A stretch of DNA of 10,108 bases from Escherichia coli. GTDB taxonomy: Bacteria > Pseudomonadota > Gammaproteobacteria > Enterobacterales > Enterobacteriaceae. Positions 8,874-9,123 of this stretch are shown here, one piece after another; position 1 is the stretch's first letter; every line of letters starts with the position of its first letter. The notes beneath the pieces were generated by a model, which saw only the letters and a list, made by a program, of their open reading frames with translations, was not told the origin of the DNA and made no database searches. The DNA lies in the NCBI RefSeq assembly GCF_003334335.1, contig NZ_QOWQ01000065.1; one strand, 5' to 3'. The position numbers and the translations under genes are program-made.

Positions 8874-8950
8874 TGGCGCGTTGTACTGGATTCGAACCAG
8901 TGACCGATTGCTTAGAAGGCAATTGCTCTGTCCGGCTGAGCTAACAACGC
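8874..8950 (-). tRNA. argO: tRNA-Arg, anticodon UCU (argO-like)
   Basis: Reverse complement GCGTTGT-TA-GCTC-AGCCGGACA-GAGC-A-ATTGC-CTTCTAA-GCAAT-CGGTC-ACTGG-TTCGAAT-CCAGT-ACAACGC-G-CCA folds as a canonical 77-nt cloverleaf. Perfect 7-bp acceptor stem, GTTCGAATC T-arm, anticodon loop CT-TCT-AA, encoded CCA. Confidence 0.85.
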
Positions 8951-8963
8951 AGGATACAGATAA

Positions 8964-9040
8964 TGGACCGCCTTCGGGGACCCGAACTCCGCGCAACCAG
9001 CTTCGAAGGCTGGCGCTCTTTCCTGATGAGCTAATGGCGG
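8964..9040 (-). tRNA. argN: tRNA-like gene, anticodon UCG by my fold (Arg; argN position); slightly non-canonical
   Basis: Reverse complement CCGCCAT-TA-GCTC-ATCAGGAAA-GAGC-G-CCAGC-CTTCGAA-GCTGG-TTGCG-CGGAG-TTCGGGT-CCCCG-AAGGCGG-T-CCA. Perfect anticodon and D stems, but one mismatch each in the acceptor (A6/A67) and T stems (A52/C62), a C at position 1, and G instead of A at T-loop position 58. Anticodon was read by hand, not by tRNAscan. Confidence 0.6.
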
Positions 9041-9047
9041 TATGTGA

Positions 9048-9123
9048 TGGTGGCCCTTGCTGGATTTGAACCAGCGACCTGGCGATTATGAGTCGCTCGC
9101 TCTCACCACTGAGCTAAAGGGCC
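9048..9123 (-). tRNA. ileZ: tRNA with CAU anticodon, tRNA-Ile2 (lysidine) type (ileZ-like); formally could be tRNA-Met
   Basis: Reverse complement GGCCCTT-TA-GCTC-AGTGGTGAG-AGCG-...-CTCATAA-...-GGTTCAAATCC-AGCAAGGGCC-A-CCA (76 nt). Closely resembles E. coli ileX/ileY tRNA-Ile(LAU) as recalled (GGCCCCTTAGCTCAGTGGTTAGAGCAGGCGACTCATAATCGC...). Confidence 0.8.

Follow-up and report, generated by a model that had tools for sequence, protein, structure and literature searches.

The window analysed here, 10,108 nucleotides of Escherichia coli DNA (contig NZ_QOWQ01000065.1 of assembly GCF_003334335.1), is the late region of a lambdoid prophage that lacks stx. Its minus strand carries, in order, a DNA methyltransferase gene, a group of tRNA genes, two STnc100 RNA elements, a SASA/NanS-type esterase gene, and the holin, endolysin and spanin genes. 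The open reading frames match the phage DNA methyltransferase, holin, endolysin, Rz-like spanin and small terminase families, and the 617-amino acid protein encoded in the window corresponds to the SASA-family carbohydrate esterase annotated elsewhere. Exactly three tRNA genes are called by ARAGORN within the window; they occupy the minus strand between positions 9123 and 8874 (Table 1), and each scores above the Rfam RF00005 gathering score of 29 bits; three tRNAs packed into this interval had been proposed by an earlier sequence-only reading, whose coordinates match these calls. The Rfam E-values, together with the synteny described below, rule out chance tRNA-like matches. The genes are separated by spacers of 7 nt (ileZ/argN) and 13 nt (argN/argO, spacer 2 below).

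Table 1. Genes and transcription signals of the tRNA cassette, in positions of the window.
Feature	Position	Strand	Remarks
ileZ	9048..9123	-	Anticodon CAU; ARAGORN; Rfam RF00005 72.5 bits, E=1e-14
argN allele	8964..9040	-	tRNA-Arg(UCG); ARAGORN; Rfam RF00005 43.4 bits, E=1e-6
argO	8874..8950	-	tRNA-Arg(UCU), AGA/AGG reader; ARAGORN; Rfam RF00005 70.1 bits, E=5e-14
Putative -35 TTGCAG	9156..9161	-	17-nt spacing to -10; 3 of 6 consensus positions
Putative -10 TATTAT	9133..9138	-	Ends 9 nt upstream of ileZ G1
Intrinsic terminator	8834..8859	-	GGCTCGC-TTTT-GCGGGCT (8859-8842) followed by T8; terminator scan

The trio is the ileZ-argN-argO cassette of tRNA genes found in lambdoid (lambda-like) E. 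coli prophages, and as such it is already known biology. Many complete E. coli genomes contain the 401 bp around the cluster at 100% identity, among them UTI89, S88, APEC O1, IHE3034, NU14 and the type strain ATCC 11775, and the annotations of UTI89, S88, APEC O1, IHE3034 and ATCC 11775 give the trio as tRNA-Ile, tRNA-Arg and tRNA-Arg. In UTI89 the neighborhood runs RusA, antitermination protein, a small open reading frame, DNA methyltransferase, the three tRNAs, a DUF1737 remnant, holin, lysozyme, lysis protein and terminase. The cluster is also present, at 92-94% identity, in about 300 (297) phage records, mostly of Stx2-converting phages; these records use the gene names ileZ, argN and argO and place the cluster immediately upstream of stxA. 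We used phage Stx2a_1447 (AP012536; the 933W / Sakai Sp5 type of cluster) as the Stx phage reference. It shares with the window the gene order, the spacing, the -10 element, the terminator, the UCG anticodon of argN and the location downstream of the Q antiterminator region; however, stxAB follow the cassette there, whereas the window has the two STnc100 elements and the esterase gene instead. The annotated relatives, the Stx2 phage homology and the flanking phage open reading frames thus agree that the cluster is prophage-borne, as first proposed. The accompanying idea was that such tRNAs help a phage to express A+T-rich cargo; toxin cargo is absent here, the STnc100 elements and the esterase gene being what follows the tRNAs. 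A literature search for ileZ, argN and argO by name found nothing in the collection covered, and the reviews and analyses of the Q-stx region that it covered are without tRNA discussion. A scan of species-representative genomes with the argN anticodon arm gave only 7 matches, mostly unrelated cellular tRNA-Arg(UCG) genes, which served as outgroups but were of no use for following the cassette beyond Escherichia.

The cassette is a self-contained unit consisting of a promoter, the three tRNA genes and an intrinsic terminator. The promoter site falls within the 49 nt that follow the methyltransferase stop codon, upstream of ileZ. A consensus promoter scan gave no site upstream of ileZ at its threshold, and the putative promoter matches the consensus at only 8 of 12 positions. 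Nevertheless, TATTAT occurs at the same distance in 105 of 109 related loci, in at least three unrelated upstream contexts: the site is preceded by the 3' end of a methyltransferase gene, by a terminator hairpin or by a different gene. The TTG of the -35 element is likewise kept across loci at 17-nt spacing (as TTGCAG, TTGCGG, TTGATT or TTGAAG). Since unrelated sequence lies upstream of the conserved promoter, the cassette appears to begin at the -35. The terminator hairpin is kept in the Stx2a phage, just upstream of stxA. A transcription start that drives the tRNAs has been mapped in a Stx2a phage (PMC7547250), and a "pS tRNA promoter" is named in PMC2858043. The earlier suggestion that the cluster has its own -35/-10 promoter is therefore reasonably supported, by conservation and by homology to the mapped start (PMC7547250) and not by consensus strength. 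We infer that the cassette would be transcribed from its own weak-consensus but conserved sigma-70 promoter (TTGCAG-17-TATTAT), that during lytic growth or induction it would probably also be read through from the late promoter, and that the transcript would be cut into three tRNAs.

The two outer genes are canonical and conserved, and are presumably functional. ileZ is annotated as tRNA-Ile or ileZ in RefSeq and in phage records; ARAGORN, going by the anticodon alone, labels it Met. It has C4-G69 and C5-G68, which we take to be determinants for TilS, and from its annotation it is predicted to be a tRNA-Ile2 with a lysidine-modified CAU anticodon. After processing, ileZ would thus be lysidinylated and read AUA, argO would read AGA and AGG, and an intact argN would read CGA and CGG. 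Genes suited to decoding the rare AUA (ileZ, with CAU and annotated as tRNA-Ile) and AGA (argO, UCU) codons are thus present, as had been claimed from the sequence. In the UTI89 prophage (21 annotated genes, 4162 codons) the frequencies per 1000 codons are ATA 11.5, AGA 8.4, AGG 8.2, CGA 6.5 and CGG 11.5; E. coli genome averages are about 4-5, 2-3, 1-2, 3.5 and 5.5, respectively. Taken against these approximate averages, the enrichment would be four- to six-fold for AGA/AGG, two- to three-fold for ATA and about two-fold for CGA/CGG. ileZ and argO would duplicate the decoding capacity of the host rare-codon tRNAs ileX/ileY and argU. An intact argN would overlap the CGN-box tRNAs of argQVYZ and argX: E. 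coli reads CGA by the abundant inosine-containing tRNA-Arg(ICG) and CGG by tRNA-Arg(CCG), and an arginine tRNA with a UCG anticodon is not known from E. coli K-12. Because these two host tRNAs already read CGA and CGG, argN would be the most dispensable of the three.

The anticodon of the middle gene had been read by hand as UCG, in conflict with an expectation that argN of Stx phages decodes AGG. ARAGORN calls the gene Arg, TCG, and offers no different anticodon (its Rfam score is low compared with those of its neighbors). The annotated argN of Stx2a_1447 aligns base for base with the window argN and has the same CUUCGAA loop; 7 substitutions distinguish the window allele, and the anticodon is the same. 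Moreover, UCG is found in every middle-slot allele that has a recognizable anticodon arm. The hand-read anticodon is therefore correct and the expectation was mistaken, the argN of Stx2a_1447 being a UCG tRNA. As judged by its anticodon, argN is the CGA/CGG reader, and AGG, like AGA, belongs to argO (UCU).

The window argN departs from canonical tRNA structure at several places, and both the Rfam alignment and a fixed-register analysis place the defects identically. The acceptor stem has six of seven pairs, with an A6·A67 mismatch. In the T stem G53-C61 is present, and an A52·C62 mismatch leaves it short of five pairs. The T loop, UUCGGGU, has U54, U55 and C56 in place but G instead of A at position 58, and so departs from the U54-U55-C56-R57-A58 pattern. 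The gene begins with C1-G72 and has U73 as its discriminator. The remainder is intact: the D arm is canonical (U8, a GCUC/GAGC stem of four pairs, A14, A21, and the loop AUCAGGAAA with G18 and G19), the anticodon arm (CCAGC / CUUCGAA / GCUGG) has five pairs, U33 and the UCG anticodon, A20, C35 and G36 are present, and CCA is encoded. The gene exceeds the Rfam tRNA threshold, yet it scores 12-15 bits below intact argN alleles (55.9-58 bits). In folding predictions its cloverleaf lies 7 kcal/mol above an alternative fold and has a negligible predicted probability (minimum free energy z-score -0.45), although the bona fide ileZ cloverleaf is also rated very low by this approach, so that we give the folding result little weight. 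Databases list the window argN as a normal tRNA-Arg, and it passes ARAGORN, Rfam and the RefSeq pipeline.

We compared the allele with that of the Stx phage and with cellular tRNAs. Between the window and Stx2a_1447 there are 0 differences in ileZ, 0 in argO and 7 of 77 in argN (91% identity). The D loop accounts for two of the seven, the variable loop for one and position 60 for another; the remaining three (G52A, A58G and U67A) are the damaging ones. In the Stx2a_1447 argN all four stems are paired (A6-U67 and G52-C62 included) and A58 is present. As outgroups we took five cellular tRNA-Arg(UCG) genes of unrelated phyla, two from Planctomycetota, one from Terriglobia and two from Omnitrophota. 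All five contain the argN anticodon arm exactly, and all have A58, paired stems, G1-C72 and a purine discriminator. They resemble argN in the 3' half of the D stem and the anticodon arm, which are identical (AGAGCGCCAGCCTTCGAAGCTGG), in the class I cloverleaf and in A20. They differ from the window allele in having A58 and full stems, where it is without A58 and two stem pairs, and from all argN alleles in having G1-C72 and a purine discriminator as opposed to C1-G72 and U73. Because the Stx phage allele and the cellular outgroups have paired stems and A58, the three defects A6·A67, A52·C62 and G58 are derived states. The sequence-only reading had listed acceptor and T stem mismatches, the missing A58 and an initial C as oddities of the middle tRNA; each of these features is present, but the last is no peculiarity of this copy. 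C1-G72 and U73 are common to all argN alleles, the intact ones included; they characterize the argN lineage as a whole and do not count as defects of this copy.

The middle slot of the cassette is far more variable than its neighbors. IMG/VR was scanned with a pattern in which nothing but the ileZ 3' end and the argO 5' end was fixed, and 113 usable loci were obtained; outside of the fixed parts, these loci contain 7 alleles of ileZ (103 of 113 loci are identical), 12 of argO and about 50 of the middle segment. Nucleotide diversity was calculated over the 78 loci in which the middle gene measures 77 nt and argO is not truncated. It amounts to 0.013 for ileZ, 0.012 for argO, 0.086 for argN and 0.17 for the 13-nt spacer 2, so that the middle slot is about seven times more diverse than the flanking tRNA genes. 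The 120 loci with a 77-nt argN copy hold 42 distinct alleles. Variation reaches 44 of 77 positions, among them three in the anticodon loop, G18/G19 and six of the seven in the T loop; A58 is present in 76 of the 120 copies. The stem changes in argN are all one-sided, about half of them to G·U and about half to mismatches; the argO T stem, by comparison, has a two-sided compensatory change (C51-G63 to G51-C63, 9 loci). The Rfam scores of the argN alleles form a graded series. Intact alleles lie at 55.9-58 bits, the G58-only allele at 54, a G54 variant (GUCGAGU loop) at 50.8, an allele with one acceptor mismatch at 44.9, the window class at 43.4, and the window class plus C32U at 42.9. Below the threshold are a heavily mutated class (C1·A72, C2·A71, lost G18/G19, T loop CUCGGGU) and a family of 80-84 nt in which the anticodon arm has been replaced and which contains a poly-G tract of variable length. 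A second scan was anchored on ileZ alone, to avoid conditioning on argO; in its 98 Ile-Arg-Arg loci the middle slot goes uncalled by ARAGORN in 28 and the third in 12, and internally deleted and poly-G-slipped middle copies are present. By this comparative evidence the middle slot is a repeatedly decaying gene, with alleles that run from intact through the window type to clear pseudogenes. It resembles tRNA pseudogenes in mobile elements, in that point mutations, insertions and deletions, homopolymer slippage and CCA loss are graded within one slot while the neighbors are conserved, and it differs in that the decay of the window copy is at an early stage, every tRNA caller still accepting it.

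G52A, U67A and one D-loop base separate the window-class allele from a G58-only allele whose stems are perfect; the window class accounts for 21 of the 113 IMG/VR loci. Its derivatives carry further changes at sensitive positions (C32U, and CCA changed to UCA); the C32U form is found in a non-Stx prophage of O157:H7 strain EC4115 and in one of an O111:H8 strain, where the upstream genes are quite different. The exact 97-nt middle segment of the window is present in 230 of 5426 complete E. coli genomes, with 616 more at 95-99% identity (1-4 nt). In the phage genome records searched, 297 of which contain the cluster, the window-class allele is absent (near-match query with the 97-nt segment, a single record returned); this query bears on the absence of the window class only and not on the allele spectrum, other argN alleles sharing no exact 28-mer. 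Within the 21 window-class loci there are 4 segregating sites in argN and 3 in argO, hence no argN excess at that scale. None of the 13 stx-positive loci carries the window class, against 19 of the 128 stx-negative ones, a difference that is not significant with these small numbers; intact argN alleles are found in 8 of 13 and 45 of 128, respectively, and here too the numbers are small.

These findings are most consistent with the idea that the window carries a copy of argN that, under relaxed constraint, has become hypomorphic or lost its function, to which we assign a probability of roughly 0.7. Of the possibilities first raised for the middle tRNA, a low-efficiency or degenerating gene is thus the one favored, by comparative evidence: the derived defects and a decay series that ends in pseudogenes. 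The three substitutions break A6-U67, G52-C62 and, with the conserved A58, the U54·A58 pair of the T loop. A58 is the partner of U54 and matters for T-loop folding, and the defects should therefore weaken folding of the T loop and formation of the elbow, and impair T-loop modification; the resulting RNA should be exposed to bacterial quality control of defective tRNAs. The overlap with the host is our proposed reason for the relaxed constraint, in that decay of argN may be tolerated since host tRNAs cover CGA and CGG.

The main alternative is that the window allele is a fully working tRNA-Arg(UCG) whose oddities are tolerated and which supplies CGA and CGG decoding during phage late expression. 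Many tRNAs tolerate single stem mismatches, and ARAGORN, Rfam and the RefSeq pipeline all call this gene a tRNA-Arg and not a pseudogene. Its anticodon arm, D arm, A20, C35, G36 and CCA are intact, G58 with otherwise perfect stems is found in several lineages and so may be tolerated, and the prophage genes do contain the codons it would serve (CGA 6.5 and CGG 11.5 per 1000). The allele or a near-identical one is also carried by about 850 of 5426 complete E. coli genomes, an abundance that could reflect retention but that clonal spread explains equally well. However, the three derived changes each strike a conserved structural feature and leave the allele 12-15 bits below intact ones, and one of them removes the A58 that pairs with U54 and is established to matter for T-loop folding. 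In addition, the slot overall displays the full pseudogene spectrum, descendants of this very allele have lost C32 and the encoded CCA, and it is found in none of the phage genome records searched, though 297 carry the cluster. We consider a fully working tRNA unlikely on balance, though it is by some way the strongest competitor.

A non-decoding function for the middle gene is much less probable still. The RNA might be a decoy or nuclease-resistant variant directed against tRNA-targeting defenses or colicins, or a structural spacer required for RNase P/E processing of the ileZ and argO precursors, and its diversity would then reflect an arms race. The slot is indeed very polymorphic between nearly fixed neighbors, most loci retain a copy of about tRNA length in the middle slot, including copies unrecognizable as a tRNA, and other phages are known to carry tRNAs that evade anticodon nucleases. 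Furthermore, A58G and U67A jointly create an alternative 5-bp hairpin in the predicted fold, in which UUCGG (54-58) pairs with CCGAA (63-67). Yet the variation is spread over 44 of 77 positions, anticodon loop included, and is not focused on a nuclease contact surface; compensatory pairs for any alternative fold are absent; internal deletions, homopolymer slippage and CCA loss are typical of decay; and the retained length is in part an artefact of the first search pattern, shortened copies being among those that exist. It is similarly a long shot that the polymorphism is the trace of selection on a tRNA-like RNA that evades or soaks up nucleases targeting tRNA-Arg (colicin D-type nucleases or anticodon-nuclease defense); if it were, the window allele, which is predicted to form the UUCGG/CCGAA hairpin, would be functional but not in decoding. 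Finally, an altered amino acid identity, by which the tRNA would be mischarged or would recode CGA/CGG, had also been raised, and we reject it as very unlikely: the identity elements used by E. coli ArgRS are A20, C35, G36 or U36 and a purine discriminator, of which the window argN retains A20, C35 and G36 and shows no feature of another identity set, and C1-G72 with U73, although unusual for E. coli arginine tRNAs, is shared by all argN alleles, also the intact ones in active Stx phages.

Decay of a dispensable gene remains our preferred reading of the middle slot, and it leaves the current understanding of phage tRNAs unchanged; the feature was already known, and this is an ordinary case of erosion of a dispensable tRNA gene. 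What is added here is a settled anticodon, the polarity of the defects and the repeated decay of the middle slot. For annotation, it means that hundreds of complete E. coli genomes list as an ordinary tRNA-Arg a gene whose product is probably impaired, and models of tRNA supply and codon adaptation in ExPEC and EHEC should not count the window argN as full CGA/CGG capacity. The unequal conservation within one three-gene cassette is also a clean natural example, in which ileZ and argO, which would read codons that the host handles poorly, are nearly invariant, while argN, whose decoding the host overlaps, erodes repeatedly.

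When the 60 nt upstream of ileZ, the first gene of the ileZ-argN-argO tRNA cassette, were compared among the related prophage loci, similarity was found to begin approximately at the -35 hexamer of the putative cassette promoter; the corresponding stretch of the window, from this hexamer up to ileZ, is 9161-9124. Beyond this hexamer the loci fall into at least three unrelated contexts, in which the cassette is preceded by the end of a methyltransferase gene, by a terminator hairpin or by a gene for an HTH protein. The comparison suggests that promoter, tRNAs and terminator travel jointly as one recombination module.

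On its other side the cassette is followed in the window by two full-length copies of the STnc100 sRNA family, arranged in tandem about 470 nt apart and bounded by the tRNA terminator and by an esterase gene (see table); each copy ends in a AGCCCCTCTCCGGAGGGGCT hairpin and then a T-rich run. Related loci carry either one or two STnc100 copies at the equivalent place. In Stx phages the place held by the two copies in the window is occupied by stxAB, and in the reference Stx2a phage Stx2a_1447 STnc100 lies 3' of stxB. Rfam matches to two other small RNAs were seen in prophages with the same tRNA cassette, namely AgvB (anti-GcvB sRNA), which adjoins STnc100 at L025 1-47, and the sok antitoxin RNA at L020 9039-9210. 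The esterase ORF is intact in the window, whereas E. coli UTI89, which is identical to the window over the tRNA region, has as its counterpart only a DUF1737 fragment flagged as a pseudogene. Hence the window stems from a different strain or prophage variant.

Features of the window and of one related prophage locus
Feature	Locus	Position	Strand	Details
617-aa ORF	window	7898-6045	minus	intact; phrog_143; annotated elsewhere as SASA-family carbohydrate esterase
STnc100 sRNA, copy 1	window	8798-8608	minus	Rfam, full length, 136 bits
STnc100 sRNA, copy 2	window	8330-8121	minus	Rfam, full length, 165 bits
80-84-nt middle-slot allele	L018	about 11224-11303		

The middle slot of the cassette, which is held by argN in the window, is occupied in many related loci by a family of 80-84-nt alleles that no tRNA caller recognised (L018, L003, L005, L011-L013, L039, L051, L055, L056, L062, L065, L079 and L086, among others). 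These alleles retain the acceptor and D arms, but in place of the anticodon arm they have a hairpin of 7 bp whose loop is 3 nt long (CGAUAAC-AGG-GUUGUUG), and their T arm contains a run of between 5 and 13 G residues; hybrids in which the T arm is intact are present in L132 and L157. Three other loci (L152, L166 and L167) have as the first tRNA after ileZ a clean cloverleaf with anticodon UCU and discriminator A73, and argO is absent after it. The body of this tRNA is of the argN type, since it has C1-G72, the D arm of argN and a T arm resembling that of argN, but its anticodon stem is a different one. This tRNA may be related to argN or be a recombinant of it, and may read AGA.

The third gene, argO, varies too. 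Its T stem has a two-sided compensatory change in 9 loci, it is cut off after position 43 in 9 loci, and its CCA is changed to CTA in 7; four loci with the window-type argN allele carry the damaging pair C62A and C68G, and argO was not called in the E. albertii representative (L123), where ileZ and argN are present. In L134, L135, L137, L138, L145, L148, L150, L153, L154 and two further loci, both Arg tRNAs are replaced, after an identical ileZ 3' half, by Lys(UUU)-Thr(UGU)-Gly(UCC) or Lys-Lys-Gly tRNAs, and ileZ is thus common to different phage tRNA cassettes.
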